A DNA stretch of 64,000 bases from an uncultured delta proteobacterium (GCA_963766715.1 CAVYBH010000002.1:32001-96000), one strand, 5' to 3'. Counted from the first letter of the stretch, positions 4,089-43,165 are shown. The notes: generated by a model not told the origin, from the letters alone. Made by a program: numbers and translations.

Positions 4089-5081
4089 TGCGCTCGAGTC
4101 CTCACCCCTTCACCCTCCGGCAGCTCCAGTACGCCGCCGCCGTGGCCGACCTGCGCTCCTTCCGCCGCGCCGCGGAGCGCTGCCACGTCTCCCAGCCGTC
4201 CCTCTCGGCCCAGGTGATCCAGCTGGAGGAGGCGCTCGGCGTCCGGCTCTTCGAGCGGGGCTCCCGCAAGGTGCTCATCACGGCGGCGGGCGAGGCGGTG
4301 CTGGCCCGGCTGCGCAGGCTCCTGCTCGAGGCCGACGACCTCTCCGACAGCGTCCGGCAGCTCGGCGACCCCCTCGCCGGCACGTTGCGGCTCGGCGTCA
4401 TCCCGACCGTCTCGCCGTACCTGCTCCCGGAGGTGGTTCCGGAGCTGCGGGCGCGCCATCCGGGACTGACGGTGGTGTGGGTCGAGGACAAGACCGAGAA
4501 CCTGGTGGAGGCGCTCCGGGACGGGCGGATCGACGGCGCGCTCCTGGCGCTCGAGGCGCCGCTCGGCGAGGTGGAGAAGGAGGTGGTCTGCGAGGACCCG
4601 TTCGTCCTGGTGGCCGCGCCCGGCCACCCGCTCGTGCAGTCCGACGCGCCGGCCACGCCACAGGACCTGCGCGGCACCGGGTTCCTGCTCCTCGACGACG
4701 GGCACTGCTTCCGCGACCAGGCGCTCGCGTACTGCGCCTCGGCTCGCGGCCGCGAGCTCGACTTCCGGGCCACGAGCCTCGGCACCCTGGCCCAGATGGT
4801 CGCGGGCGGCGCGGGCGTCACGCTGCTCCCCCGGCTCACGCTGCCGGTCGAGAACCGCCGCTCCGAGCTCGCGGTCCGCCGCCTCGCCAGCCCCGAGCCG
4901 CACCGCACGCTCGCGCTCGATCTGGCGCCCCCGCTCCCCGATCGGGCCGGCGCTGCGCCGGCTCGCCCAGACCATCCACGAGGCGTGCGTCCGCTCGGAG
5001 GAGCGGCTCGAGGCGCTGGTCGGAGGGCGGGGCGCTCCCGCCGCGAAGCCCCGGCGCGGCGCGGTGCGGACGCGCGTCTGA
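4088..5081 (+). CDS. oxyR: Hydrogen peroxide-inducible LysR regulator OxyR (frameshift near 4920)
   Basis: LysR HTH LRQLQY...FRRAAERCHVSQPSLS; GHCFRDQALAYC (CX8C redox pair); FRATSLGTL. Confidence 0.88.
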
Positions 5082-5201
5082 GCGGTCGCCAGCCCGGTTG
5101 CGAGCGATCCCCCCACCAGGGATGGGCGCCCCCCCTCCGGCACCGTAGGATCCCCGTCACGTTCGGTTTCACCACGCCGCACCGTCCGCAGGAAGGGGCA
5201 C

Positions 5202-6618
5202 ATGCACTGGCACTGGGCCTGGATCCTCCCCATCGCCAACTGGTCGATCCGGCTCTGGGCCATCTGGGCGGTCCCTCGCCGGCGGTCCCCGAACGCGGCC
5301 CGCGCCTGGCTGCTGCTCATCGTCCTGCTGCCGATCCCCGGGTTCGCCCTCTACTCGATCTTCGGGCGCGCCTACCTGCCGAGCAAGCGGCGGGAGCGGC
5401 AGAGGCAGGCCACCCGGCTCATCCGCGATTCCCCGGCGCTCGTCGGGGTTCCGGGCTCGGTGCAGGTGGGGGACGCGCAGCAGGCCACCGCGCACCTGGC
5501 GCCGGAAGCTGGGCGCCTTCCCGGTGGTGGCCGGCAACCGGGTCGAGCTGATCGACCACTACGAGACCTCGATCGACCGGCTCGTCGCCGACATCGACGC
5601 GGCGCAGGAGAGCGTGCACCTGCTCTTCTACATCTTCGAGCCCGATCGCCACCGGTCGCCGGGTGGCCGACGCCGTGATCCGCGCGGCCGGCCGCGGGGC
5701 CACCTGCCGCGTGATGATGGACGGCATGGCGTCGCGCCCCGGGCTGAAAGCAGCTGGCTCCCGGGCTGCGCGCCCACGGCGTGGAGGTGCTGTCGATGCT
5801 CACCCCGGGCACGCGCCAGGCCCGGCGCGACCTGCGCAACCACCGGAAGATCGCCGTCCTGGACGGACGGGTCGGCTACACGGGATCCCAGAACCTCGTC
5901 GACGCCTTCGACTACAAGGGGCGGGGACTCACCAACGAGGAGCTGATGGTCCGGGTCGAGGGGCCGGTGGTCCGGCAGCTCCAGGCCATCTTCCTCACCG
6001 ACCGCTTCCTGGAGGACGGAACGCGGGTCGACGTGGAGCCGGCTCTATCCTCCGGAGGCCACGGCCGGGACGGTCCGGGCGCAGGCGCTGCCGAGCGGTC
6101 CCACCTACGAGGCCGAGAACAACGAGCGCACCTTCGTCCAGATGCTCTACGGCGCCCGCAAGCGCATCGTGGTCACGTCGCCGTACTTCGTCCCCGATCG
6201 ACCGTTCGTGGAGGCCATGCAGGCGGGGGCCGCCCGCGGCCTGGAGGTCCACCTGATCACGCCCCGGCAGGCCGACCAGTGGCTGGTGCGGCTCGCCCAG
6301 GAGTCGTTCTACGAGGAGCTGCTGGCGGCCGGGGTCCAAATCCACCTCTACCGGCCGAGGTTCCTCCACGCGAAGCACCTGTCGGTCGACGACGACATCG
6401 CCGCCATCGGCTCCTCCAACATCGACATGCGATCCTTCACGCTGAACGAGGAGGCGGTGTTGATGTTCTACGACCAGGGCGTGGTGGCCGACCTGGCGCG
6501 CATCCAGGACCGCTACATCCGGGATTCCGACCTGCTCACGAAGGAGGAGTGGCAGCGCCGCAAGCCGCTCCGCCAGACGGCGCAGCAGCTGGCGCGGCTG
6601 GTCGACTCGCTGCTGTAG
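5202..6618 (+). CDS. cls: Cardiolipin synthase (PLD family), several frameshifts
   Basis: Two N-terminal TM helices; HKD motifs RNHRKIAVLDG and LHAKHLSVDD; TSPYFVPD; GSSNIDMRSF. Confidence 0.88.
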
Positions 6619-9131: not shown

Positions 9132-9824
9132 TCACTGCCCGAGGATGACCCGGTCGTAGTACTGGGCCGCGGGCACGCCGCTCGCCTTCGCCCGCGCGAG
9201 CGCGGCGTCGATGGCGCTGCGGAAGGCGGCCGCCGGCTGCGCGCCGACCACCAGCGTGCCGTTCACGACGAAGCTGGGGGTGCCGCCGATGCCCACCTGG
9301 CGGCCCAGCGCGGCGTCCGCCTCGATCCGCGCCTCCATGGCCGCCGGGCTGGCGCGGCAGGCCTGCCACGCCGCCACGTCGAGACCGGCCTGGGCGGCGA
9401 ACGCCTCCAGGTCCGCGTCGAACCCGCCGTCGAAGAGGGTTCCGGCCCTCGCGGCCGCGAAGACGAGGTCGTGGAACTCCCAGAAGCCTCCCTGGGCGCG
9501 GGCGCACTCGGCGGCCACCGCGGCCGGGATCGCCCGGGCGTGCTGGGAGAGCGGGAAGTGCTTGAACACGTGCCGGACGTCCGGTCCGTACTCCGGAAGG
9601 ACCTGCGCGAGCGTCGGCTGCACCATCACGCAGTACGGGCACTGGAAGTCGGAGAACTCGACGATGGTGACCCAGGCGTCGGCCGGTCCGTCCACCGGCG
9701 AGTCGGCCACCGGGACCCGCAGCACGCCCGCGGTGGCCTCGGTGGTCGTGCTCGAGCCGCACGCGGCGAGGAGGAGGGCCAGGGCGGTGACGAGCGCGGT
9801 GGCGAGGACGGATCGCGTCCTCAT
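9132..9824 (-). CDS. DsbA-family thioredoxin-fold lipoprotein
   Basis: Lipobox LAAC; VTIVEFSDFQCPYC; KHFPL; GIGGTPSFVVNG; GAQP. Confidence 0.9.
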   Translation of the reverse strand: MRTRSVLATALVTALALLLAACGSSTTTEATAGVLRVPVADSPVDGPADAWVTIVEFSDFQCPYCVMVQPTLAQVLPEYGPDVRHVFKHFPLSQHARAIPAAVAAECARAQGGFWEFHDLVFAAARAGTLFDGGFDADLEAFAAQAGLDVAAWQACRASPAAMEARIEADAALGRQVGIGGTPSFVVNGTLVVGAQPAAAFRSAIDAALARAKASGVPAAQYYDRVILGQ

Positions 9825-11265
9825 CGCTTCCTCCCGGGGCGCTCTCCGCGCTGCCTTCGCGGGCGCCCGGCGCGCCGCCTTCCGCGCCGCGGGGGCGGCC
9901 GGCCTGGCGGCCAGCTCCTCGTACAGGTAGGCCGCGGCGAGGATGCCCCGCTGGTAGTTCTCGAGGTCGAGCCGCTCGTTGGGGGCGTGGCTGTTCTCGT
10001 CGGGCAGGCCGAAGCCCATCAGGATCACCGGCACGCCCAGCGCCTCCTGGATGGTGGCCGTGAAGGGGATCGAGCCGCCCTCCCGGATGAGGACGGGCTT
10101 GCGGCCGAAGGCGCGCAGGAGCGCCCGCTCGGTGGCCTGGAACTCGGGCGCGTCGGTGGGGCAGAGGAAGGGCGACCCGCCGTGGAGGGCGGTGACCTTC
10201 ACCTTCACCGTCTTCGGCGCGACCTTCTTCACGAAGGCCGTGAACTTCCGCTCCGCCTCCTCCGGCGTCTGGTCGGGGACGAGCCGCATGGAGATCTTGG
10301 CGCCGGCCCGGGCCGGGAGCACGGTCTTCGCGCCCTCGCCCTGGTAGCCGCCCCAGATCCCGTTCACCTCCAGGGTGGGCCGGGCCCAGATGCGCTCGAG
10401 CACGTGGAACCGGGGCTCGCCCCAGGCGCGGGGCGGGTTGCCGGCCCCCTCCAGGAACGACTTCATCGTGAAGGGGAGGCGGCGGACCTCGCGCCGCTCC
10501 CGCTCGGTGAGCTTGCGCACGTTGTCGTAGAAGCCGGGGATCCGGACCTTCCCGTCCTGGTCCTTCAGCTGCGCGACGATGTGGCAGAGCGCGTTGGCCG
10601 GGTTGTCGACCGCGCCGCCGAAGCTGCCCGAGTGCAGGTCGCCCGAGGCGCCCTCCACGTCGACCTGCATGTACATCAGGCCGCGCAGCCCGTAGCAGAT
10701 GGAGGGGATGTCGTGCCCGAACATGGGCGAGTCGGAGACCACCACCGCGTCGGCGGTCAGCCTCGACCGCTCCCGCTGGAGGAAGGGTCCGAGGTTCTCG
10801 CTGCCCACCTCCTCCTCCCCCTCGAAGAGCATCTTCACGTTCACCGGCGGTCCACCGGCCAGGCGCCAGGCCTCGAAGGCCTTCAGGTGGAGCCAGACCT
10901 GTCCCTTGTCGTCCACGGCGCCGCGCGCGTAGAGGTTGCCGTCGCGGACCTCCGGCTCGAAGGGAGGGGAGGTCCACAGCTCGAGCGGCTCGACCGGCTG
11001 GACGTCGTAGTGGCCGTAGACGAGGACGGTGGGCGCTGCCCGGACCGGCCTCGAGCCATTCCCCGAGGACGATGGGGTGGCCCGCGGTCGGGAAGATCGC
11101 GACCTTCATCCCGAGCCGCTCCATCTCGATCCGGAGGTGCTCGGCCGCGAGGAACATGTCGGGCTTGTGCTCGGCCTGGGAGGAGATGGACGGGATGCGC
11201 AGGAACTTCACGAGCTCGTCCACGTAGCGCTGGCGGTTCTCGCCGATGTACCGGGTGATGTCCAT
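9821..11265 (-). CDS. M20-family dipeptidase (frameshifted)
   Basis: FLRIPSIS, YGHYDVQP, ARGAVDDKGQ, EGEEEVGS, DLHSG, GGSIP, HAPNE. Confidence 0.9.
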
Positions 11266-11328
11266 GGGGCGAAAAGCTACTCCGCGGGCCGCCCGCCGGT
11301 GGGAAAAAAAGGAGGGGCGGACCGGCCG

Positions 11329-11928
11329 TCAGGGCGCCAGCAGGCCCAGGCGCAGCAGGTCCTCGGGCGTGTTCACGTTCTCGAAGGAGCGGCCGTCCGG
11401 GTCGACCTCGCGCCATTCGCCGGCCGTCACCACCCGGGCGCCGGCCTCCCGGGCGATGGCCCGGATCGACGGATCGCCCTCGCGGAGCATCCGATCCACC
11501 ATGGGCAGGAGCGCCCGCGACCAGAAGGCGTGGAGCCCCTCGAGCCCGCGATCCCATTCCACGATCGCGGCAGGCGCTGCCCCCCGGCGCGTCGCCAGGA
11601 ACCGGATGCACCCCTCGGACAGGAACGGCATGTCGCAGCCGGCCGCGAAGATCCAGCCGGTGCGCGCGGCTCCGAGGGCGGCGTGCAGGCCGCCCGGGGC
11701 TCCCTTCCCGGGAATCGCGTCGGGGACCACCCGCACGCCCAGGGAGGTCCACGGTGCGGGGTCGTTCGCCACCACCAGCACCTCCCCGAAGAGCTCGCGG
11801 AGGAGCGCCACCGATCGGGCCGCGAGCGTCTCGCCGCCGAGCCGGGACAGGGCCTTCGGGGACCCGCCCATGCGCCGGGCCTGGCCGCCGGCCACCAGGA
11901 CGCCGGTGCAGTCGGGGATCCGCTCCAC
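11329..11928 (-). CDS. mobA: Molybdenum cofactor guanylyltransferase
   Basis: LVAGGQARRMGGSPKAL, GAPGGLHAAL, GCDMPFL, FENVNTPEDL. Confidence 0.88.
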   Translation of the reverse strand: MERIPDCTGVLVAGGQARRMGGSPKALSRLGGETLAARSVALLRELFGEVLVVANDPAPWTSLGVRVVPDAIPGKGAPGGLHAALGAARTGWIFAAGCDMPFLSEGCIRFLATRRGAAPAAIVEWDRGLEGLHAFWSRALLPMVDRMLREGDPSIRAIAREAGARVVTAGEWREVDPDGRSFENVNTPEDLLRLGLLAP

Positions 11929-11998
11929 GCCGGGAGCTTACCTCGCCGTACCCCGGCCGCGGTGGCGAAGGGCCGGTCCCTCTGCTACAAGACCGCGC

Positions 11999-12328
11999 GT
12001 GACTCCCGAGCAGCGCCTCGAGGCCTTCCGGAAATTCGTCGAACGAAGCCCGGACGACCCATTCGCGCGCTACTCGCTGGCCATGGGCCACCGCGGCGCC
12101 GGACAGCTCGAGGAGGCCGTCCTGGTCTTCGAGGAGCTGGCGCGGCGGGTCCCGGGCTACGTCGCCACCTATCTCATGTGGGGCCAGACCCTCGAGGCGC
12201 TCGACCGCGTCTCCGGGGCGGCGAAGGTCTACGAGCAGGGTATCGCCCGGGCGACCGAGGCGAGGAACGAGCACGCAGCATCGGAGCTCGAGCAGGCCCG
12301 TGCGGCGCTGGCGGCGCGGGAAGCGTGA
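11999..12328 (+). CDS. Small TPR protein
   Basis: PDDPFARYSLAM...EEAVLVFEEL...PGYVATYLMWGQTL. Confidence 0.8.
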   Translation: MTPEQRLEAFRKFVERSPDDPFARYSLAMGHRGAGQLEEAVLVFEELARRVPGYVATYLMWGQTLEALDRVSGAAKVYEQGIARATEARNEHAASELEQARAALAAREA

Positions 12329-12355
12329 GCCGGGCAGCCGGCGGGAAGGGATGAC

Positions 12356-13141
12356 ATGAGCGGATTGATGCAGGGGAAGCGGGCCTTCGTCACCGGTGTC
12401 GCGAACGACCGCAGCATCGCCTGGGCGATCGCGGAGCGCTTCCACGCGCAGGGGGCCGAGCTCGCCTTCTCGTACCCGGGCGAGGCCATGGGCAAGCGCA
12501 CCATCCCGCTCGTGAAGACCCTGAACCCGGCCGCCATCCTCGACCTCGACGTCTCGAACGACGCCCAGATCGACGCGGCCGTCCAGGAGGTCGGGAAGGT
12601 CTGGGACTCGGTGGACGTCCTCGTCCACTCGATCGGCTACGCGCCGCGCGAGGCCCTCGACGGGCGCTTCACCGACGTGACCACCCGCGAGGCCTGGCGC
12701 ATCACCATGGACGTGTCGGCCTACTCGCTCATCGCGCTGGCCCGCGCCTTCCGGCCGCTCCTGAAGCCCGGGGCGAGCATCCTGACCCTCAGCTACTACG
12801 GCGCCGAGAAGGTGGTCACGAACTACAACGTGATGGGCGTCGCCAAGGCCGCGCTGGAGGCGTCGGTGCGGTACCTGGCCGAGGACCTCGGCCGCGAGGG
12901 CATCCGCGTGAACGCCATCAGCGCCGGTCCGCTCAAGACGCTCGCCGCGGCGGGCATCAAGGGGATGCGCAGCATGCTCGGCGAGAACGCCTCCCGGACC
13001 CCGCTCCGGCGCAACATCGAGCACGACGAGGTGGGGCAGGCCGCGCTGTTCCTCTGCTCGTCGATGGGCTCCGGCATCACCGGGGAGACGCTCCACGTCG
13101 ACGCCGGCCAGAACATCATGGGCGTGGTGTCGATGGGGTAG
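12356..13141 (+). CDS. fabI: Enoyl-ACP reductase
   Basis: GVANDRSIAWAIA, VHSIGYAP, YNVMGVAKAALE, NAISAGPLKTLAA. Confidence 0.95.
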   Translation: MSGLMQGKRAFVTGVANDRSIAWAIAERFHAQGAELAFSYPGEAMGKRTIPLVKTLNPAAILDLDVSNDAQIDAAVQEVGKVWDSVDVLVHSIGYAPREALDGRFTDVTTREAWRITMDVSAYSLIALARAFRPLLKPGASILTLSYYGAEKVVTNYNVMGVAKAALEASVRYLAEDLGREGIRVNAISAGPLKTLAAAGIKGMRSMLGENASRTPLRRNIEHDEVGQAALFLCSSMGSGITGETLHVDAGQNIMGVVSMG

Positions 13142-13159
13142 GGGCGGGCGCCCCGGGCC

Positions 13160-13812
13160 TCACATGAAGCGGCCGTGCGGGGCGTCGTCGCCCGCGTACG
13201 GATTGGCCTTCCGCTCGGCCCCGAGGGTGCCGCCGGGCCCGTGGCCCGGGAAGAAGCGCACGTCGTCGCCCAGCGGGAAGAGCCGCTCGCGGATGGAGCG
13301 CAGGAGCTCGGGCGCGTTCCCCCCGGGAGGTCGGTCCGTCCCACCGAGCCGGCGAACAGCGTGTCGCCGGTGAAGAGGATCTCGTCGTCCGGGAAGTGGA
13401 AGCTCACCCCGCCCGGGCTGTGACCGGGAGTGTGGATGACCCGTCCCTCGTGGCGCCCGACGCGAACCGCGTCGCCGTCGGCGAGGAAGCTCTCCACCTC
13501 CGGAGAGGCGGTCTTGCCGAAGCCGAGCCCCGCGGCCTGGCCGGGGAGGGCCCGGACGAAGGGCTCGTCGCCTCGGTGGATCTGGAAGGGTGCGCCGGTC
13601 GATTCCCGCAGCGCCTCGACCCCGAAGATGTGGTCGACGTGGCCGTGGGTGGCGAGGATGCGCCCGACCCGGAAGTCCGGGAGCGCGAGCCCGAGCACGC
13701 GGCCGGTCTCGCCGCCCGGGTCGATCACGAGGGCGTCCCCGGTCTCCGAGTCGGCGACGAGCCAGGTGTTCTCGGCGAAGGGGCCGACGACCGCCTGGCG
13801 AACGACCAGCAA
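13160..13812 (-). CDS. MBL-fold metallohydrolase (glyoxalase II-like), frameshift near 13320
   Basis: THGHVDH, HTPGHSPG, FTGDTLFAGSVGRTDLPGG, PGHG. Confidence 0.9.
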
Positions 13813-24596: not shown

Positions 24597-26415
24597 ATGC
24601 TGACGACCCTGCGGATCACGGGCTTCGCGGTGGTGGACCAGGTCGAGGTGCACTTCGGCCCGGGCCTGAACGTGCTCACCGGAGAGACCGGGGCCGGCAA
24701 GTCCCTGCTGGTCGGTGCGCTCCACCTGGTCCTCGGCGGTCGCATGAGCGCCGACCTCCTCCGCGAGGGGGCGGACGAGGCCTCGGTCGAGGCGATCTTC
24801 GAGCTGCCGGGCGACCACCCGGCGCTGGCCCGGGTCGAGAGCGCGGGCCTGCCGGCGGGGGAGACCTCGGAGGACGGATCGGTCGAGCTCCTCGTCCGGC
24901 GCGTGGTGACGCGGGCCGGTCGGGGCCGGGTCTTCGTGAACGGGGCCCTCTGCACCCTGGCCGTGCTCGAGTCGACGCTCCGGGGCGCCGTCGACGTCAC
25001 CGGCCAGCACGAGCACGTCTCGCTGCTCGACGCCACCACCCACCTCGACCTCCTCGACGCCTTCGCCGGCGCCGCCGCTCCGGGGGGCCTCCGGGCGCGC
25101 TACCGGGAGCGGTTCACGACGCTGGCCGGGCTGGTGCGGGAGGAGCGGGTCCTCGCCGAGGCCGAGGGCGAGCGGGCGCTCCGTGCCGGCTACCTCTCCT
25201 TCCAGCTCGACGAGCTCGAGGCGGTCAATCCCCTTCCCGGGGGAGGACGCCACCCTGGAGCAGGAACGGAAGCTCCTCGCCGGAGCGGCCAGGCTCGGCG
25301 AGGCCGCGCGGGGCGCCGAGGCGATCGCCTACGGAGAGGAGGGGAGCGCCGCCGAGCGGATCGGCCAGGCCATCCGATCCCTGCAGGATGCCGCGCTCCT
25401 CGATCCCCGGCTCGACGAGCCGCTCGGGCTTCTTCGCTCCGCGGCGGCGGAGGTCGAGGAGGCCGGCCGTGGGCTCGCCCGGTACGCCGGAAGCCTGGAG
25501 GGCGATCCCGAGCGCCTGGCCGCGGTCGACGACCGGGTCGCGGCGCTGCGCGCGCTGGCCCGCAAGCACGGGGGAAGCCTCGAGGCGGCCCTCGCCCGCC
25601 GCGAGGCCATGCGGGTCGAGCTGGCCAGCCTCACCGGCGCGGAGGGGAGGCGGGAGGAGGTCGCACGGGAGGCCGCGGTCCTCGCCAAGGAGGCAGCGGC
25701 CCTGGCCGCCGACCTGGGTCGCGAGCGCCAGCGGGCGGCGCGGGCCTTCTGCCGGGCAGTGGCCGAGGAGCTCGAGGCGCTCGCCATGGCCAGGTGCCGG
25801 GTCGAGGTGACCTTCTCGCCACCGGGCGGGTCCATCGAGGTCGCCGGGCACCGGCTCGGGCCCGCCGGCGCGGAGACGGCCGAGATCCTCATCGCGCCCA
25901 ACCCCGGTGAGCCGGCGAGGCCGCTCGCCCGGGTGGCGTCCGGCGGCGAGCTTTCGCGGGTGCTCCTGGCGGTCAAGCGGGCGCTGTCCCGGGCCGACCC
26001 GGTCCGTTCCTACGTCTTCGACGAGGTGGATGCCGGCATCGGCGGGGCGGTGGCCGAGGCGGTGGGCAGGGCGCTCGCCGAGGTGGCCAGGGACCGGCAG
26101 GTGATCTGCGTCACGCACCTGCCGCAGGTGGCCGCCTTCGCCGACCGGCACGCCCGGGTCGAGAAGCGGGTGGCCGCCGGCCGGACCACCACGGCGGTGG
26201 TCCCGCTCGACGCCGAAGGCGAGCGGCGCGCCGAGGTGGCGCGGATGCTGGCCGGCCATACCGTCACGGCCTCCGCGCTCGACCACGCGGCCGCCCTCAT
26301 CGCCGGCGCCCGGGCCCGGGACGGCCGGAAGGGGGCTGTCCCCGCCCGTGCAGGTGCGGCCCGCGGGGCCCGGGGGCCCGCTCGCGGGAGGGCGGCGGCG
26401 GTGGCCCGCGCGTGA
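24597..26415 (+). CDS. recN: DNA repair protein RecN (frameshift near 25240)
   Basis: LNVLTGETGAGKS, GQHEH, NPGEPARPLARVASGGELSR, FDEVDAGIGG, QVICVTHLPQVA. Confidence 0.95.
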
Positions 26416-26430
26416 GGCGGTGCGCAGTCG

Positions 26431-26460
26431 TTGACCCGCGCTGGAGGGCGGGGATACCAT
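26431..26460 (+). promoter_or_regulatory. Candidate sigma70 promoter of the PP2C gene
   Basis: TTGACC-N18-TACCAT. Confidence 0.5.
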
Positions 26461-26471
26461 CCGCGCCGCTC

Positions 26472-27239
26472 GTGGCCCCCTCTCGACCATTGTCCATCGC
26501 CGCGAGAGGCGTGACCGACGTCGGGCGGCGCCGCGAGCACAACGAGGACGCCCTGCTCGTCGACCACGAGCTGGGGCTCTTCGTGGTCGCCGACGGGATG
26601 GGCGGGCACGCGGGCGGCGGGACGGCATCGTCCATCGCCGTCTCCACCATCCAGAAGAGCGTGCGCGCGGCGCGCTCCTCGGCGCCGGCTCCCGAGGCGA
26701 GTCCTTTCCCCACCGTGCTTCGCCTGGCCGTCGAGGACGCCTGCCGGGCCATCTACCGGGCCGCCCAGGAGGATCCGAGCCTGGCCGGGATGGGCACCAC
26801 CGTCACCGCCGCCCTGCTCGTCGGGCACAACATCTACCTGGCCCACGTCGGCGACAGCCGCTGCTACCTGGTCCGGGGTGGGCGCATCTTCCAGCTCTCC
26901 GAGGATCACTCCCTCGTGAACGAGCAGCTCAAGGCGGGCGCCATCACCGAGGCGGAGGCCCGCTCGAGCCGCTTCCGAAACATCATCACCCGGTCGGTGG
27001 GCTTCGAGGAGGAAGTGCTCGTCGACGTGGTCGAGCTCGACGTCGAGCGGGGGGACGTGATCGTCCTTTGCTGCGACGGCCTCTCCAACCTCGTCGCCGA
27101 CCCGGAGATCCTGGAGATCGCCTCGGGGGCGCCGCTGGACGATGCGCCAGAGCGACTCGTGGCGCTCGCCAACGAGCGTGGCGGGGACGACAACATCACG
27201 GTGATCGTGGTGCGGGTGGACGGGGAGAAGAAGGCGTAA
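26472..27239 (+). CDS. PP2C-family Ser/Thr phosphatase (Stp1/PrpC-like); start approximate
   Basis: TDVGRRREHNED, VADGMGGH, MGTT, HVGDSR, DHS, CCDGL, GGDDNITV. Confidence 0.93.
   Translation: MAPSRPLSIAARGVTDVGRRREHNEDALLVDHELGLFVVADGMGGHAGGGTASSIAVSTIQKSVRAARSSAPAPEASPFPTVLRLAVEDACRAIYRAAQEDPSLAGMGTTVTAALLVGHNIYLAHVGDSRCYLVRGGRIFQLSEDHSLVNEQLKAGAITEAEARSSRFRNIITRSVGFEEEVLVDVVELDVERGDVIVLCCDGLSNLVADPEILEIASGAPLDDAPERLVALANERGGDDNITVIVVRVDGEKKA
27196..27239 (+). repeat. Copy 1 of direct repeat (native PP2C 3' end; putative att core)
   Basis: TCACGGTGATCGTGGTGCGGGTGGACGGGGAGAAGAAGGCGTAA. Confidence 0.85.
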
Positions 27240-27243
27240 CGTT

Positions 27244-27277
27244 CCGGCATCTCCCTTTCGCCGCAGGGGAGAGCCGG
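27244..27277. terminator. Hairpin between convergent PP2C and AraC genes
   Basis: CCGGCATCTCCCT-ttcgccgc-AGGGGAGAGCCGG imperfect stem; no clear U-tract. Confidence 0.35.
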
Positions 27278-27309
27278 CAGACGCTGACGTTGCGCCCGCT
27301 CGCCCCCCG

Positions 27310-28359
27310 TCAGCCCGGGTCGCGCCCCGTACGATCCATTCGCGCCCGGCGCCGCCATCCGGCAGGAGGAACGCCAAAGTGACGCTTGAAGGCGCGGCCA
27401 AACGCGGCCTCGGATTCGTAGCCGGTTCCCTGCGCGATTCCCTTCAGCGGCTGGCTTGTCGTTCGCAGGAGGTTTGCCGCGACCTGGAGACGCCATCGTG
27501 CGAGGTAGTGCACGGGGGGCATACCAAGCCGGCGCGTGAAGCGCTCGGCGAGCACCGTGCGGGACACCCCCACGCGGCGGGCAAGCGAATCGACGGTCCA
27601 CGGATCGGCAGGTGCGCGGTGGATCAGCGCGAGCGCGCTCGCGACGACGGGATCGCCAGACGCGGCCAGCCATCCGACCCGGGCGTCGCCGGCCGAGCGC
27701 ATGTGGTCGCGAAGGACCTCGACGAACATCAGCTCGACCAGGCGCGAAATTACCGATCGGGAACCAGGGCCGGGGCGAGCGGCCTCGTGGGCGGTGTATC
27801 GGATCGCGGTCGCCAGCCAGCGGGCGCGCGGATCCGAACCGGGGCGGGCGTGAAGCAGGAGAGGAAGGTTGCGAAGGAAGGGATCGAGGAGAAGATCCTC
27901 GCAGCTGACGAAGCCGCAGACGATCCTCGCCAGGGCTCCCTTCCCGCCGTGGCGCACCAGGGGCGCCTCATCCCACGGCGGGTGCGGGAGGACGGCTCCG
28001 ACGGGCTCCGTTGCGGCCTCCTTCTCGCCGCCAAGACGGTGGCCGGAGCCCTGGGGGAGGAGGACGGCCTCGCCCGCGGAGACCCGGACGCGGGTCCCGT
28101 CGCCTGCATGGACCCAGAAGGAGCCCTCATCCGCGACGTGGAAGGGGACCACGTTCTCCACGCAACCGGGGAGCATGCGCGCCATGTCGCGAGCGTCCGG
28201 GATGGCGATCCCCCAGGGCTCCCTGAACTCGGCGCGGAAGAGGACGGCGCCCGAGATGTGCACGGTCGCGAGCAGATCGGAAAGCACGTCCACCTGGGGC
28301 GTGCGCGTCGGGGACGAATCCTCCGACGTCCCAGCATGGATTCCCGGAGACCCGGTCAT
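27310..28359 (-). CDS. AraC-family regulator with Cupin_6 sensor domain
   Basis: DVLSDLL...PWG, FHV..GS.W, GEAVLLPQG, WTVDSLARRVGVSR, GYESEAAFGRAFKR. Confidence 0.9.
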   Translation of the reverse strand: MTGSPGIHAGTSEDSSPTRTPQVDVLSDLLATVHISGAVLFRAEFREPWGIAIPDARDMARMLPGCVENVVPFHVADEGSFWVHAGDGTRVRVSAGEAVLLPQGSGHRLGGEKEAATEPVGAVLPHPPWDEAPLVRHGGKGALARIVCGFVSCEDLLLDPFLRNLPLLLHARPGSDPRARWLATAIRYTAHEAARPGPGSRSVISRLVELMFVEVLRDHMRSAGDARVGWLAASGDPVVASALALIHRAPADPWTVDSLARRVGVSRTVLAERFTRRLGMPPVHYLARWRLQVAANLLRTTSQPLKGIAQGTGYESEAAFGRAFKRHFGVPPAGWRRRARMDRTGRDPG

Positions 28360-28436
28360 GGCCTCGCTCCAAAGCACGGCTAGTAGACCTTCGCCTGTCG
28401 GGAATGACCCCGACCGAATTGCGAAGGAGCCTATCC

Positions 28437-28805
28437 ATGGCCGAAGAAGCGCGCAATCTGGTGGTGATGATCACGCATGGAATCGACCACGAGCTATCGT
28501 CGGTCGGCTTCACGCTCGCATGCGGGGGGATGACGGCTGGGATGAAGGTTTCGGTCTTCTTGACGAGTTCAGGCGTGGACATCGTCAGGAAGAGTGCGGC
28601 GGACACCACTCACGTGAAGCCCCTCGACCCGCTCCTGGATCTGATCCACGACTTTCTACGTCGAGGTGGGAAGGTCTGGGCGTGCACGCCCTGCGCGAAG
28701 GCACGGGGTTACGGGCCGGAGGATCTCATCGAGGGCGTGGAAATCGCGGGCGCAGCGGGGATGCACGCCTTGCTCAAGGCCGGCGCCGCGTCGCTCTGCT
28801 TCTGA
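28437..28805 (+). CDS. DsrE/DsrF-like protein
   Basis: AAGGAG RBS; VSVFLTSSGV, GGKVWACTPCAKARG, LIEGVEIAGA. Confidence 0.85.
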   Translation: MAEEARNLVVMITHGIDHELSSVGFTLACGGMTAGMKVSVFLTSSGVDIVRKSAADTTHVKPLDPLLDLIHDFLRRGGKVWACTPCAKARGYGPEDLIEGVEIAGAAGMHALLKAGAASLCF

Positions 28806-29018
28806 GCCTTCCGGTGCCACTCGTTCCAGAGCTTCAACCCGACGGGGCCCCGGCTCATAGTGGGCTCGGGGCTCTGGTCGTTGACGGGCGCAACGGCGCC
28901 GGAGGAGCCGATCGATGATGAGCGATGGCGGTTTCCCGTTCCCACTCCGTTCCCACTGCGAGGCCTCCCAGGAGCCCCTGGGAGCGATTTTCGGACCCGC
29001 CCCGGTACGCAGCTACTG

Positions 29019-29087
29019 GGAGGCGTACCCCGGACCATCACCCTCACGGTGATCGTGGTGCGGGTCGACGGGGCGGGCCGACCCTGA
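29019..29087 (+). repeat. Copy 2: conserved arm plus PP2C 3'-end copy
   Basis: GGAGGCGTACCCCGG-accat-CACCC then core 29044-29073, 29/30 identical to 27196-27225; stop codon at the same offset (TVIVVRVDGAGRP*). Confidence 0.88.
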
Positions 29088-29157
29088 CGGCCTGGATCGG
29101 CCTCACGGCCCAGACGCGCAGTTCCCCAGGTAGGGATTGAAGGCCGCCCTGCGGACC

Positions 29158-30174
29158 TCACGACGAGGGGTAGGCGTCGGCAACGCTCAGCACGCGCCCC
29201 AGTAGCGCCGGGTCGGGGCTGAGCGCTCCTCGCGAGATGGCTCGCACCGTCTCCACGATTGCCGCGTTCAACGGTACCGGAACGCCGCTCTGGCGCCCGC
29301 AGTCGACGACGTAGCCGTTGATGAAGTCGATCTCCGTCGGGCGTCCCTGCTCGAAATCCTGGAGCATCGAGGGCTTCACGTCGCCGTAGCCCCGGAGGAC
29401 CTCCGCGAGCCACGCCTCGTAGGCGGGGCCGGGCCTGGGCGGAGGCACCGCCTCGACCAGCATGGGCTCCGGCCGCACGCCGGTTGCCAGGGCCACCGCC
29501 AGCGCCTCTTCGTAGGTCGCCTCGAAGAGGGCTCGGCCCGCGGGTGCAGAGAGGTACTCGCGCAGGGTCAGGCCCGCGACTGCGCCGATCGTGGTGACCG
29601 AGCAGTTGAGCAGCAGCTTCGACCAGACCGCGCCCTGGATGTTGGGCGTCACGCGGACTTCGACGGCGCGCCCCAGCCAATCCCGGACCTGCTTCGCCCG
29701 CGGGCTGACCCCGCCGTCCAGTTCCCCGATGAGCAGGTGGCCGGTGTTGCGCTGCGCGTACACCCCCGGCGCCACCATCGTCGCCCCGAGGTTCGAGAGA
29801 CCGCCAAGAACGCGCCGATCCCGGAGCCGATCGGCGATGGCTCGGGCGACGCCACCGTTCTGGATGGGCAGGAGCGTGCCGGCAGGCGCCAGGAGACGGG
29901 CCAGCCGCGGCGCCACCTCGACCGCCTCACGAGCCTTCGTGGCCAGCACGATCAGCTCGAACGCGTCGGCCGGGTGGTATTCGTCCGCCGCCGCGACCTC
30001 GGGGGTGTCCACCTGCACGGCGCCGCCCAGACCCGTCACCCGGAGACCACTGGCCCTGAGCCTTTCCGCCGACTCCCGGGTCCGGGTGGCCAGCCGGACG
30101 GGCGAGCCGGCCGCTTGCAGGCGAGCCGCTATCAGGCCTCCGAGCGCACCGATCCCGACCACCAGGGTCTTCAT
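29158..30174 (-). CDS. Ketopantoate reductase family protein (PanE/ApbA)
   Basis: GIGALGG, LATK, IQNG, WSKLLLN, SMLQD...TEIDFING. Confidence 0.88.
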   Translation of the reverse strand: MKTLVVGIGALGGLIAARLQAAGSPVRLATRTRESAERLRASGLRVTGLGGAVQVDTPEVAAADEYHPADAFELIVLATKAREAVEVAPRLARLLAPAGTLLPIQNGGVARAIADRLRDRRVLGGLSNLGATMVAPGVYAQRNTGHLLIGELDGGVSPRAKQVRDWLGRAVEVRVTPNIQGAVWSKLLLNCSVTTIGAVAGLTLREYLSAPAGRALFEATYEEALAVALATGVRPEPMLVEAVPPPRPGPAYEAWLAEVLRGYGDVKPSMLQDFEQGRPTEIDFINGYVVDCGRQSGVPVPLNAAIVETVRAISRGALSPDPALLGRVLSVADAYPSS

Positions 30175-30367
30175 GGCGGCGCAGTGTACCTCGCGGGTCT
30201 TGCGGGTGATGCACCCTGGACCCGGGGTTCCCGCGTCGCCGGCCGGGACGTCCTCGCTGCGAGAGGCGACGGCCGGTTGGGCTCCCAGGTCCCTGGCCCC
30301 CGCGATGCATCAATCAGGCGCGCCTGGACAGGAGCCTGGGTCCGCGGGCTCCCCCAGCGGAGACACC

Positions 30368-32446
30368 GTGGGAATCAAGCATTCGACGAGGCTTCTCGCC
30401 GCAGTCATCGCGTTCGTCGGCGTGGCGGGGTCGACCGTCGGTTGCTCCAGCGGCGGCGGCGCCAGCAAGACTCCGACCTACCCGATCGACTCCACCGTCG
30501 CGAAGACGACCGCCCGGGTGCTCCGGTTCCCCGTGCCCGTGCAGCCAACCGGCCCCGGCTCGACCACCGGCCTCTACAAGACCGAGCTCGACCAGGTCGG
30601 GAACTACGGCCGCTTCGACCCGCCGTACGGCGCCTGGACCTACAGCTCCGAGGGCCTTCCGGTGGTCCAGCGGACCGACCTGATGCCGGCCCACTTCATC
30701 CCGGGCTCGCTCCCCCGGATCCAGCACTTCGCGAGCTTCTTCGCCATCACGGACATCCACGTCACCGACAAGGAGGCGCCGAACCAGTTCATCTACCTCC
30801 AGCAGGAGAACGCGACGTTCTCCGGCAGCAACACCTCCATCTACTCGCCAGTCATGCCCTACACGACGCACGTCCTCGACGCGGCCATCCAGACGGTGAA
30901 CGCGCTCCACGCCCAGGCGCCCTTCGACTTCGGACTGTCGCTCGGCGACGCGGCCAACAGCACGTCGCTGAACGAGCTCCGCTGGTACATCGACGTCATC
31001 GACGGCCAGTGGATCACCCCGAGCTCGGGCGCCCACCTCGGGGCCAGCACGGTCGACTTCCAGAAGCCGTACCAGGCGGCGGGGCTCGACAAGGCGATCC
31101 CCTTCTACCAGGCGCTCGGCAACCACGATCACTTCCAGATCGGCTCGTTTCCCGTCTACGCGGACCCGTCGCTCGGGCTCGCCGAGGCGTACGTGGCCGG
31201 CGCCGTCTGGGCGACTCCGGACATCCTCGTCCCCTGGCCTCCGAACTTCCCGAGGATCGCCAACATGGACAACCTCCGGAACCCGGCGCCTCCGGTGCCC
31301 TCCGCCCGGTACTACCAGGGCGTGATCGACGGCGGCTCGGCGACCGGCGCGATCACCGGCGCGGGACCTGTCGGATGGCTCGACGCCCCACCGCCGGTCG
31401 CGGCCGATCCCGCTCGCCGCTCCCTCCTCAAGACGGAGTGGATCCAGGAGTTCTTCGACACGACGTCCAACCCGGTCGGCCACGGCTTCGCGCTCGTCGA
31501 CCCCGATCAGCCGGAGGGCTTCGCCTGCTACAGCTTCCTGCCGGTTCCGGGCGTGCCGCTCAAGGTGATCGTCCTCGACGTCACGCAGTCGGAGACCGAC
31601 GGCTCGAAGGACATCCACGGACACGGGTACCTCGACGCGAACCGCTGGGCCTGGCTCCAGCGGGAGCTCGACGCCGGACAGGCCGCGAACCAGCTCATGG
31701 TCATCGCCGCCCACATCCCGATCGGCGTGTCGGGCGTGGCGAGCGGCATGGAATGGTGGGACTCCGCCGCGGACCCGGACGTGAGGCCCGAGGCGCAGAA
31801 CGCGGTGTCCCTGACGGAGCTGGTCGCGAAGCTCCAGGCCACGCCGAACTTCCTGGTGTGGCTCGCCGGGCACCGCCATTTCAACGTCGTGAAGGCCTTC
31901 CCCCCGGTGGACCCCGGCGAGCGCGAGAGCGCGCCCTGGAAGGGGTTCTGGCAGGTGGAGACCTCCTCGCTGCGCGACTTCCCCCAGCAGTTCCGCACCT
32001 TCGAGGTCTTCCTGAACGGCGACTACTCCGTGTCGATCGTCACCACCAACGTCGACCCGGCGGTCCGGGCAGGGACGCCGGCCGCGACCTCGCGGGCCTA
32101 TTCGGTCGCGGCCCAGCAGATCGTCCAGAACGACCTCGTCGCGAACAACGTCAACCAGTCGATGATCGACAAGGCGCCCTTCGACGCTCCACCGACCTAC
32201 TACCCGCCGGCCTACGCTCCCATCCCGACGATGGATCCGACCCGGCCGCAGATGCCCGCGGGCTGCTACGTTCCCGTCCCGCCGGCCAGCCTGAACTGCA
32301 TCCAGTCCCTCTACCAGGACCCGAGCATCCAGGTTGGGGCGGTCCCGGGCGTTCCCTACGTCGCCTCGTACAACGCCGAGCTCTTCAAGCAGCTCAGCCC
32401 GGCCATGGAGAGCTATCTCCGGACGAGGTATCCGCCCCCGCGCTGA
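30368..32446 (+). CDS. Metallophosphoesterase lipoprotein (TIGR03768-like)
   Basis: Lipobox TVGC; TDIHVTDKE, LGDAAN...ELRWYIDVIDG, GNHDH, AAHIP, AGHRH, VETSSLRDFPQQFR. Confidence 0.85.
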   Translation: MGIKHSTRLLAAVIAFVGVAGSTVGCSSGGGASKTPTYPIDSTVAKTTARVLRFPVPVQPTGPGSTTGLYKTELDQVGNYGRFDPPYGAWTYSSEGLPVVQRTDLMPAHFIPGSLPRIQHFASFFAITDIHVTDKEAPNQFIYLQQENATFSGSNTSIYSPVMPYTTHVLDAAIQTVNALHAQAPFDFGLSLGDAANSTSLNELRWYIDVIDGQWITPSSGAHLGASTVDFQKPYQAAGLDKAIPFYQALGNHDHFQIGSFPVYADPSLGLAEAYVAGAVWATPDILVPWPPNFPRIANMDNLRNPAPPVPSARYYQGVIDGGSATGAITGAGPVGWLDAPPPVAADPARRSLLKTEWIQEFFDTTSNPVGHGFALVDPDQPEGFACYSFLPVPGVPLKVIVLDVTQSETDGSKDIHGHGYLDANRWAWLQRELDAGQAANQLMVIAAHIPIGVSGVASGMEWWDSAADPDVRPEAQNAVSLTELVAKLQATPNFLVWLAGHRHFNVVKAFPPVDPGERESAPWKGFWQVETSSLRDFPQQFRTFEVFLNGDYSVSIVTTNVDPAVRAGTPAATSRAYSVAAQQIVQNDLVANNVNQSMIDKAPFDAPPTYYPPAYAPIPTMDPTRPQMPAGCYVPVPPASLNCIQSLYQDPSIQVGAVPGVPYVASYNAELFKQLSPAMESYLRTRYPPPR

Positions 32447-32466
32447 TGGGGTCGATGGGGCGACCC

Positions 32467-32534
32467 GGAGGCGTACCCCGGGCTCGCACCCTCCCGGTGG
32501 TCGCGGGGCAGGTCGGCGGGAGAAGAAAGCCTGA
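32467..32534 (+). repeat. Copy 3: conserved arm plus degenerate PP2C 3'-end copy
   Basis: GGAGGCGTACCCCGG-gctcg-CACCC then TCCCGGTGGTCGCGGGGCAGGTCGGCGGG-AGAAGAAAGCCTGA, 33/44 to copy 1, still encoding EKKA*. Confidence 0.8.
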
Positions 32535-32688
32535 CGCTCCGCGTCGAGCCCGGGTGTTCCCCTATCGGTCCCCGACACGCCCGACATCCTTCCGGGACGT
32601 TCGGCGTGCGGGGGGAGGGATATCGAGCTATACCCCCGCCACTACTGGGAACCTACGCGTCGCGAAGGCGCCCACATGCCAGAGTTCG

Positions 32689-32718
32689 TTGACACTCCCC
32701 GAGGGGCTCTGGTACCCG
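32689..32718 (+). promoter_or_regulatory. Candidate sigma70 promoter upstream of M23-secA
   Basis: Consensus TTGACA, 18-nt spacer, weak -10 (TACCCG). Confidence 0.35.
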
Positions 32719-32788
32719 TTGGCCGTCCGGGTGGCAGGGGACAAGGTTTTCCGACCCGTTTCTCCGAGCGAAGCCAGACCCTCCAAGA

Positions 32789-33700
32789 ATGCCCACGACC
32801 CCCGACAACCGCCAGTACACCCTGATCGTGGTCAGCGACCACTCGCAGGCGGTGCGGAAGTTCCGCCTGCCGCGTCGCTGGCTGAAGAAGGGCGCCATCG
32901 GGGCGGCGGTGGTCCTGGTCTTCGGGCTCGTCACGGTGACCCACTACTTCACGCTCCTGTCGGCCGCCTCCGAGAACCGGGTGCTGACCGAGGAGAACGC
33001 CCAGCTCCGGTCGCAGGTGCTGCTCGTCCAGGAGAAGGTGGCCCACGTCCAGGCGACGCTCGACCGGGTCGAGCGCTTCGACGCCAAGCTCCGCAGCGCC
33101 GTCACGCACCTCCAGGACCCGGAGCGCAACCTGGCCATCGGCCCCCTGGGCGCTCCCGAGGCGGCCCCGCCGGCCCCCGCGACCGCCGCGCGCGAGAATC
33201 CGGCCGCGCTTCCCGGGCGCATCGCGTCCCTCGAGAACGAGGCCCATCGGCAGGAAGCCAGCCTCCGCGAGCTCTCCGAGTACTTCGAGGACCAGAAGTC
33301 CATGCTGGCGTCCACCCCGTCCATCTGGCCCACGCAGGGCTGGGTGACGAGCGACTTCGGCGTCCGCCTCGACCCCTACAACGCCGACCGCTCCATGCAC
33401 CAGGGGCTCGACATCTCCACGCCGCACGGACAGTCGGTCATGACCCCGTCCGACGGCACGGTCGTCTTCAACGGCACCGAGGGCGGCTACGGCAAGGTCC
33501 TCGTGATCGACCACGGCTACGGCGTGAAGACCCGCTACGGCCACCTCTCCGAGACCTTCGTCCGGCTCGGGGAGCGCGTGGCGCGCGGCCAGAAGGTGGC
33601 CGCCGTGGGCAATACCGGCCGCTCCACCGGGCCCCACCTCCACTACGAGGTGCGCGTGAACGGAATCCCCGAGAACCCCAGGAAGTTCATCCTGGAGTGA
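32789..33700 (+). CDS. M23-family peptidoglycan endopeptidase
   Basis: TM + coiled coil; [29 protein letters not shown]. Confidence 0.93.
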
Positions 33701-42414: not shown

Positions 42415-43165
42415 TCAGGGGAGGAAGGGAATGGGGTCGCGCGGCTTCGTTCCCTCGCGGACCTCGAAGTGCAGGTGGGGACCGGTGGTGCGGCCCGACT
42501 GGCCGACCTTGGCGATGGGCGTGCCGGTGTCGACCCGGTCCCCGTCCTTCACCAGGACCGCGCTGTTGTGGGCGTAGAGGGTGATGAGCGAGTCGGCGTG
42601 GCGCAGGATCACGATCACGCCGTAGCCGGACTGGGTGCCGGTGTAGATCACCTCGCCCGGCGCGGCGGCGCGCACCAGCGTCCCTTCCGGCGCGGAGAGG
42701 TCGATGCCGTCGTGCCGCTGCCCCTGCTTCACGCCGTAGCCGCGGTAGAGGACGCCCTGGAGCGGCCAGGCCATCTTCGCGCCGGGGTTGCGGCGCGGCA
42801 AGCGGAGGCTCGGGCTCCCGGGAGGCCGCCGAGCCGGCCGGCACGGAGGCCACGTCGACCGCGCGCGGCGCGCCGGGGACGAACAGCTCCTGCCCGGGGG
42901 CCAGCGTCTTCGGGTCGGAGATGCCGTTCGCGTCCATCAGCTCGCGAGGGTCGACGCCGTACGCCTTGGCGATGCGGTAGAGGGTCTCGCCCTTCTGCAC
43001 CACGTGGGTCGTCCCGACGAGGTCCGGCTCCACGTGCGGATCGGCGCTCGAGAGCGGGAAGGGGGGCTGGCGCTGGCCCGAGACCTCGGCCGGCGTGCGC
43101 TGCCGCGCGGCACATCCGGCAAGCGTCGCCAGGGCGAGCGCCCCGGCGACGAGGCGCCGCCTCAT
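42415..43165 (-). CDS. nlpD: LysM/M23 lipoprotein (NlpD-like), frameshift near 42800
   Basis: Lipobox [17 protein letters not shown]ysM; WPLQG, HDGIDL, LYAHN, HLHFEVR; follows surE. Confidence 0.8.

Follow-up and report, generated by a model that had tools for sequence, protein, structure and literature searches.

A stretch of 64,000 nucleotides from an uncultured delta proteobacterium (GCA_963766715.1 CAVYBH010000002.1:32001-96000; "the window" hereafter means this whole stretch) carries two gene cassettes between a gene for a Ser/Thr phosphatase of the Stp1/IreP-type PP2C family and an M23 peptidase gene. Neither cassette has a recombinase gene, and both end in a copy of the 3' end of the PP2C gene. 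A comparison of this interval with related genomes and metagenomes indicated that the PP2C 3' end, together with the variable recombinase-less cassettes found behind it, is likely a site-specific gene-capture hotspot. The source genome (G000, in which the window is C2:32001-96000) is a metagenome-assembled genome (MAG) of 4,196,528 bases in 18 contigs, 84.6% complete and with 3.5% contamination. All the genomes compared were MAGs as well, mostly in short contigs, and the evidence from public sequencing runs consisted of assembled contigs only.

Three copies of the PP2C 3' end

Before these comparisons, a reading of the window made from its sequence alone (the sequence-only reading) had described three direct copies of the PP2C 3' end, at 27196, 29044 and 32492, with spacings of 1848 and 3448 bp. 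These were reproduced by a repeat search of the window (copies at 27164-27224, 29012-29072 and 32460-32520) and by BLAST against the genome. Copies 1 and 2 were identical at 29 of 30 bases counted from 27196 and 29044, and copy 3 was degenerate, with a 1-nt deletion and an EKKA-stop end that could still be read. With copy 2 as the query, three places in the genome scored well (E-values of 6e-58 for the self match, 3.7e-8 and 2.4e-7), the next match being at 1.5e-3. A profile of the repeated unit reached E<0.001 at these same three places of contig C2 only.

Copy 1 (27196..27239, plus strand; repeat search and BLAST) resembles a left attachment site, attL, and is made of the core, TCACGGTGATCGTGGTG..., and the PP2C tail VDGEKKA-stop, whose type is the one that the right-hand cassette carries. 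Copy 2 (28934..29090, plus strand) is a full attachment (att) module, delimited by a conservation profile over 28 units and by alignments, and runs in frame into a PP2C-like tail, TVIVVRVDGAGRP-stop, whose stop codon lies at 29085-29087. Copy 3 (32463..32534, plus strand) is attR-like, a partial, decayed unit (profile positions 54-111) followed by the displaced PP2C tail EKKA-stop. An arm upstream of the core is common to copies 2 and 3 and missing from copy 1. The three copies thus read as gene, core and element; element end, core and next element; and element end, core and old downstream DNA. As read from the sequence, this is the layout that would be expected if circles had integrated at the gene end. 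Contigs from public runs (X2) matched the junction between PP2C and cassette 1, copy 2, and the junction at copy 3 with 0-2 differences.

A module of about 160 nt closes each cassette

The 44-nt repeat proposed in the sequence-only reading proved to be real, although it makes up only the right end of a longer module (about 160 nt), whose conservation spans window positions 28934 to ~29090 in blocks (profile over 28 units). The order within the module is two GTTCCCAC direct repeats (in copy 2 at 28938-28945 and 28949-28956), a first palindrome followed by TTTT (28965-28972 / 28977-28984), a second palindrome (29004-29010 / 29023-29029), the invariant core TCACGGTGATCGTGGT (from 29044) and the PP2C-type tail with its stop codon, all on the plus strand. 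The paired GTTCCCAC motif occurred a single time in the whole genome with up to 3 mismatches allowed, and some left ends carried an extra TTCCCAC. A terminator scan of the unit called none (4 T present, the rule being 5 of 8). A coding role was rejected as well, the 44-aa open reading frame (ORF) at 28916-29050 not being kept, with TAG in that frame in other copies.

This module was the sole feature common to the cassettes, which were built in the order PP2C-type tail with stop codon, short left arm, cargo, right arm of ~110 nt, and core. Copy 2 was 78-93% identical to the units of other genomes and metagenome contigs, the median identity between units being 84% over 406 pairs, and units were 84-92% identical between genomes whose PP2C genes were 78-84% identical.

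The site is empty in other genera and filled in this genus

The PP2C and M23 proteins were used to search 40 relatives, and the places of the two genes were compared; counting the source genome, PP2C orthologues were found in 40 of 41 genomes and the M23 gene in all 41. In the other genera of the family the gap between the two genes was 41-314 bp in 9 of 11 genomes. Two genomes from other genera (G018 and G023) had 8.1 and 4.0 kb of other genes at this place; these insertions showed no PP2C-end repeats and were rejected as instances of the same system. In the other families of the order, the genes were 147-589 bp apart in 10 of 16 genomes, and on different contigs or not adjacent in the other six. 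Within the genus itself, seven of the 13 relatives had both genes on one contig, 3032-15256 bp apart; the assembly broke between them in five, and PP2C was not found in one genome (70% complete). Near-identical PP2C genes on two contigs of one genome (G013, C7 and C33; one copy at a contig end, 7% contamination) probably represent two strains in one bin.

PP2C and M23 therefore adjoin in 19 relatives of other genera and families, which provides the empty-site alleles that the sequence-only reading had suggested looking for, and indicates that the adjacent state is old, while the site is filled and variable in this genus. In the window, the old spacer follows copy 3 (32535..32788, plus strand; aligned with G003, G008, G020, G021 and G024) and includes an M23 promoter-like TTGACA...TACC block, which in the alignment also stands at the empty sites of other genera.

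Distribution of the module and diversity of the cargo

A BLAST search of 92 genomes of the family with copy 2 gave matches in 14: ten of the 13 relatives in the genus, the source genome, one genome of a sister genus (G092) and two with core-only matches. The latter (30-44 nt, in G014 and G022) were the only matches outside the interval. Every long match lay within the PP2C-M23 interval wherever linkage could be seen, and matches of unit length shared a contig with PP2C or M23, except on G002 C169, which is short and unlinked. An exact-pattern scan of the genomes of 185,579 species (GTDB-wide) returned this genus and three chance matches only; the same kind of scan of metagenomes returned 31 loci, 18 of which were true by profile.

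Loci with no profile hit were dropped (13 of the 31 metagenomic and 3 of 10 genomic loci), and seven genomic loci that duplicated genomes already in the comparison were removed before counting. The 33 non-redundant loci held 34 full units, 7 partial units and 14 PP2C ends. Units on any one contig were always co-oriented, with 20 unit-to-unit spacings of 146-8733 bp, and arrays ranged from one to at least five modules; the array of G008 had four full units and one partial unit in 13.8 kb. Two loci (G092, L032:8497-8745, and L070:639-1010) showed two units back to back, at spacings of 146 and 261 bp and with no cargo, representing either att-only circles that integrated or deletions of cargo.

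For the cargo, ORFs of at least 80-90 aa with high GC3 were picked by a filter on GC content by codon position, and 134 of them from relatives and metagenome contigs (35, 42 and 57 in three scans) were searched with Pfam. By our own count, about 30 different cargo sets were present in the 33 loci, so that the different cargo between copies proposed as a second check was also found. They included DUF1254/DUF1214 proteins, FMN_bind_2 proteins, zinc dehydrogenases, a sulfatase, proteins with a beta-lactamase fold, many TPR proteins, regulators of the MerR, LuxR and TetR families, a peptidase S58 with an amidohydrolase, and a tannase. Cassettes were 1-9 kb long, with several genes in both directions, up to four, and their own regulators. 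One locus (L065) carried a complete SbtA-PII-PEP carboxylase-IlvD block of 6.8 kb; compared with it, Sbt_1 and PEPcase were partial in the G008 array (L013, oriented 9800-13300; profile positions 167-306 and 262-919), reflecting either decay or frameshift errors of the MAG. The sole mobile-element gene in any array was an IS30-like transposase (HTH_38 and rve domains) in a metagenomic cassette (L066:365-1573, minus strand).

Signs of cassette movement

In G006 the PP2C core was followed by the sequence that in G008 comes after the last unit, and therefore the extra 13.8 kb of G008 begin and end exactly at the core. The position of individual cassettes also varied: the DUF1254/1214 cassette opened the array in G010 and G004 and took second place in G003 and fourth place in G008; the cassette that opens the array of G003 stood after an internal unit in G002; and the SbtA cassette had different left neighbours in two loci (L056 vs L058). 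For the DUF1254/1214 cassette, identity was 89.5-94.3% in all 10 pairs, higher than that of PP2C (78-84%) or M23 (83-89%).

The tail and its stop codon co-varied with the cassette on their right, indicating that the tail travels with that cassette. PP2C therefore always keeps an intact end, and the crossover is confined to a stretch of ~27 nt that reaches from the core to where the tail begins. The first cassette of the window, with AraC and DsrE cargo, matched FMN_bind_2 cassettes at both ends, over 62 nt on the left and 270 nt on the right, the cargo being different. Its left end (27196-27257) was 84-95% identical to cassette left ends in G005, G008, L062 and L068, and its right end (28804-29073) was 82-84% identical to G008 (4962-5231) and L068 (1855-2124), and 78% identical to G005; the part upstream of copy 2 (28804..28933, plus strand) was delimited as an extended right arm by its DNA match to those cassettes.

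In contigs from two public studies (X1 and X6), the DsrE end and the left half of the unit ran on into a variant right half, and then into a left end of the type seen at copy 1, where the window has its second cassette; this points to variation at the strain level. In window coordinates this joint runs from 29009 to 27196, a step back of 1814, with one contig per study. The continuation of the X1 contig was only ~85% like the window, compared with 98.7% on the DsrE side, and for this reason we take the joint to reflect a different neighbour or a relative in tandem; a circle might also give such a joint, but is not proven by it.

Proposed mechanism of cassette capture

We lean, with modest confidence, towards an explanation in which a recombinase acting in trans inserted cassettes that carry only an attP-like site at the PP2C end, a proposal drawn from the sequence comparisons above. 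The two cassettes of the PP2C-M23 interval would have inserted one after another, each as a circle whose attP-like module recombined with the PP2C 3' end or with a module already resident, the crossover falling within the ~27 nt between the core and the start of the tail. Excision as circles would proceed by recombination of two modules. The GTTCCCAC repeats are putative arm-type binding sites of a tyrosine integrase, and the first palindrome with its T-run may be a weak terminator insulating the cassettes. The enzyme might be supplied by a helper element that these assemblies do not include, or be a host protein that has gone unrecognised. Homologous recombination and gene conversion would act on top of this process, making the modules mosaic.

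The serial integration hotspot for non-autonomous cassettes put forward in the sequence-only reading is supported by the comparison of empty and filled sites, the variable cargo and the recombinase-free arrays; the recombination itself is what we infer.

Search for a recombinase and alternative explanations

A number of results weigh against a dedicated site-specific reaction and are gathered here, beginning with the search for an enzyme. The 134 ORFs from relatives' and metagenomic loci included no tyrosine or serine recombinase, and nor did the 53 of 56 filtered window ORFs that were scanned, the latter result bearing out the earlier statement that the window shows none. The ORF filter might miss foreign genes, and two filter-independent searches were therefore performed: four tyrosine recombinases from these genomes, searched against all six frames of the array loci (261,637 b), gave nothing, and six-frame searches of seven whole genomes with PF00589 gave no match near the arrays. 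No relaxase or type IV secretion families were listed in the Pfam scans of the array and window ORFs. Serine recombinases (PF00239, PF07508) were found in G005 only, far from its array, and were absent from G000, G004, G008 and G011. Two Xer-like genes were the only tyrosine recombinases common to G000, G004, G005, G008, G011 and G012; G012 (93% complete) had this pair only, and the genera with an empty site have it too.

Pieces of integrase genes in the source genome lay at tRNA-Phe, tRNA-Gly and tRNA-Arg and were rejected as the cognate enzyme. No unit stood beside an integrase gene in any of the 33 loci, a search limited by the short contigs. The unit had no BLAST match in PLSDB or INPHARED, and scans of IMG/VR returned the unit pattern 0 times and the arm motif 4 times, the latter being low-GC chance occurrences with no profile match, so that no helper phage or plasmid was found in the three databases. 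None of the 18 metagenome contigs was circular.

The integrase shared by G008, G011 and G004 was also rejected as a candidate, as it sits at tRNA-Gly. Integrases linked to tRNA-Gly(GCC) were present in L081 (G008 C20), L083 (G011 C119), L084 (G004 C206) and L086 (G000 C10), with 91% identity between G008 and G011; the one in G000 matched in two reading frames and may be frameshifted. These islands are a separate island family in the genus, and a core-like 18-mer (3 mismatches) beside one of them is most likely a chance occurrence.

A second group of adverse results concerns the units themselves, which did not cluster by cargo. Half-units recurred with edges near unit positions 48-58 in G000, G008, G012 and the X1 contig. 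Within the conserved unit there was a hypervariable patch (positions ~7-47, window 28968-29008), in which 12 of 41 positions differed between the FMN_bind_2 cassettes of G008 and L068, ~99% identical elsewhere, as if the patch had been swapped by gene conversion. The units are thus mosaic, and homologous recombination or gene conversion between them is, to judge from these alignments, clearly acting; homologous recombination may be all that moves the cassettes today. The higher identity of units and cassettes over their surroundings would fit recent exchange, and could also be explained by constraint.

A folded recombination site, in RNA or single-stranded DNA as in the attC sites of integrons (imperfect palindromes with R and L boxes, conserved in structure), was also considered but not adopted. 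The 167-nt module folded better than its shuffles (top strand z -3.4, 0/200 as good; bottom strand z -2.5, 2/200), but covariation did not exceed that of shuffled controls (RNAalifold covariation term +0.57), and the named helices were 69-86% paired, the shuffles pairing as well. No Rfam family matched the module.

The mosaic units, their grouping independently of cargo, the recurrent half-unit breakpoints and the lack of a recombinase near the arrays, down to a genome with the Xer pair only, are what would be seen if the repeats were fossil att sites left by old integrative elements. They would then serve as portable homology, and RecA-dependent crossover and gene conversion, including that following DNA uptake between species, would remove, add and reorder cassettes with no site-specific enzyme. 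Perfectly identical blocks of 17-40 nt within units, when PP2C is only ~80% identical between species, point in the same direction. We regard this explanation, the main rival, as possible, though on the unlikely side. It does not say how a module with a PP2C tail came to be on each of ~30 cargo sets, nor why conservation is blockwise, with the paired GTTCCCAC repeats and the palindromes intact in 34 copies beside unrelated cargo, nor why the extra DNA of G008, compared with G006, stops precisely at the core. Decayed units do exist, and intact units with no function should have decayed too.

Capture of attP-only cassettes by an enzyme acting in trans can be taken further, to a genus-wide, integron-like capture platform, in which attP-only circles bear regulated gene sets and a target-repairing module of ~160 nt, and are handled by a recombinase of an unrecognised type, repurposed from the host or undescribed, that is not linked to the arrays. 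This extended form is doubtful.

Small recombinase-less modules moved by a host enzyme are known as the pdif modules of Acinetobacter plasmids and as integrative mobile elements exploiting Xer recombination (IMEX), which are bounded by 28-bp dif-like XerC/XerD sites. Recombination of the PP2C cores by the host XerC/XerD would agree with the two Xer-like genes being the only tyrosine recombinases common to the six genomes of the genus searched, and with G012 having no other. The same pair is present in empty-site genera, however, and the GC-rich core is unlike the AT-rich arms of the putative dif-like site of the source genome (C12:556133, form ATAA-N6-TTATG, ~19 kb from the Xer-like gene at C12:575067), which makes this explanation very unlikely.

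A chromosomal integron remnant, that is, a cluster of attC sites lacking an integron integrase (CALIN), is extremely improbable. The locus shares with integrons and CALINs, as described in PMC4889954, a single fixed entry site, co-oriented sites that each close one cassette, shuffling, and arrays with no integrase nearby. Other features set the locus apart from them: no integron integrase (TIGR02249) rose above the cut-off in the source genome (best 85 bits against 265; genome 84.6% complete); the units are conserved in sequence (the 84% median given above) and not in structure alone, an attC-like fold lacking support from covariation or Rfam; the cassettes hold several genes in both orientations with their own regulators and reach 9 kb, whereas integron cassettes are co-oriented and consist for the most part of one promoterless ORF; and the entry site falls within a coding sequence, which every cassette restores.

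Chance similarity or an assembly artefact, which the incompleteness and contamination of the MAG might suggest, is refuted by the within-genome E-values of 1e-7 to 1e-8, the presence of the same module in independent assemblies of nine other genomes and in 18 metagenome contigs, and the recovery of the junctions in public-run contigs, and has a negligible probability.

Genes of the window cassettes and their flanks

The gene labels of the sequence-only reading were upheld by matches to Pfam, NCBIfam and TIGR families. The target gene (26412..27239, plus strand, with a predicted start codon; Pfam PP2C_2/PP2C) scored 254 bits against NCBIfam NF033484 (cut-off 230). Both window cassettes are divergent gene pairs. 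The first encodes an AraC-family regulator with Cupin_6 and HTH_18 domains (27310..28377, minus strand; domain search) and a DsrE-family protein (28404..28805, plus strand; Pfam DsrE, 1.9e-15). The AraC regulator had no orthologue at E<=1e-40 in any of the 13 genus relatives, and its best match in the family was 59%; on this comparison the AraC/DsrE cargo is foreign to the genus.

The second cassette encodes a member of the PanE/ApbA 2-dehydropantoate reductase family (29158..30174, minus strand; TIGR00745, 189 bits), with no DNA match in any other fetched locus, and a TIGR03768-family metallophosphoesterase (30371..32446, plus strand; 767 bits, cut-off 387), an ORF of 691 aa with a predicted start codon, a lipoprotein-like N-terminus and no match in a Pfam search. 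The DNA of the latter gene was 85-87% identical to G009, G006, G003 and G010, the same level as M23.

The M23 peptidase gene (32789..33700, plus strand; domain search) forms the conserved right flank. The spacer before it gave a weak Rfam match to the CcsR1 small RNA (window 32567-32644; 23 bits, gathering score 65, E 0.031), probably by chance. A second, short M23 peptidase ORF (128 aa; 42418-42801, minus strand) lies 9 kb downstream of the first, beside surE.

Comparison with known systems and significance

One close parallel is with cis-mobilizable elements (CIMEs), which have no integration or transfer genes and keep attL and attR, and with the tandem accretion of ICESt1/ICESt3-related elements at the fda 3' end in Streptococcus thermophilus (PMC5704250). 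The PP2C locus likewise shows tandem stacking behind a protein-coding gene whose 3' end recurs at every boundary, a recombinase would have to be supplied from elsewhere, and its cassettes lacked integration and transfer genes in the Pfam scans and the six-frame check. CIMEs are described as decayed integrative and conjugative or integrative and mobilizable elements that lie beside an autonomous relative, whereas no integrase or transfer remnant was found in the arrays, and no autonomous relative in the 33 loci or the three databases, a search limited by the short contigs. The PP2C cassettes are also minimal (146 bp to 8.7 kb), with ~30 cargo sets and one module conserved genus-wide.

The staphylococcal cassette chromosome (SCC) uses ccr large serine recombinases borne by some of the cassettes of the island; no PP2C cassette carried a recombinase, and serine recombinases were missing from four of five genomes. 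Composite SCC and pseudo-SCC islands at rlmH (orfX) of staphylococci have been reported (PMC13739063, bioRxiv 10.1101/336396). They resemble the PP2C arrays in having the 3' end of a housekeeping gene as the entry, cassettes delimited by direct repeats, some of them recombinase-less, and variable cargo. In the present locus PP2C takes the place of rlmH as the target, and what is repeated is not a short site but a module of ~160 nt that includes arm-like repeats.

Tandem ssrA-specific genomic islands of Dehalococcoides are described as each carrying their own integrase. They show the same serial integration at one conserved gene end, with the end repeated (PMC3146451). Their target is a tmRNA gene, in contrast to the protein gene used here. 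The logic of the PP2C locus thus resembles that of CIMEs, SCC and integrons, but a defining feature of each is lacking: a decayed or autonomous parent element, ccr, and IntI (an attC-like fold also being unsupported), respectively. No paper on this locus was found in the literature searched, which excluded subscription journals.

If the cassettes are mobile, they would amount to a shared supply of no fewer than ~30 compact gene sets, each complete in itself, which species of an uncultured Anaeromyxobacteraceae genus exchange, including regulators, transporters, redox enzymes and the SbtA-PII-PEP carboxylase-IlvD block, at one chromosomal site and without the usual integrase. Island finders keyed to integrases would then miss a whole class of hotspot, and the compact attachment module would offer a handle for finding its recombinase. 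The locus would also be a natural case for studying how cargo and att site come together, as is still being asked of integron cassettes.

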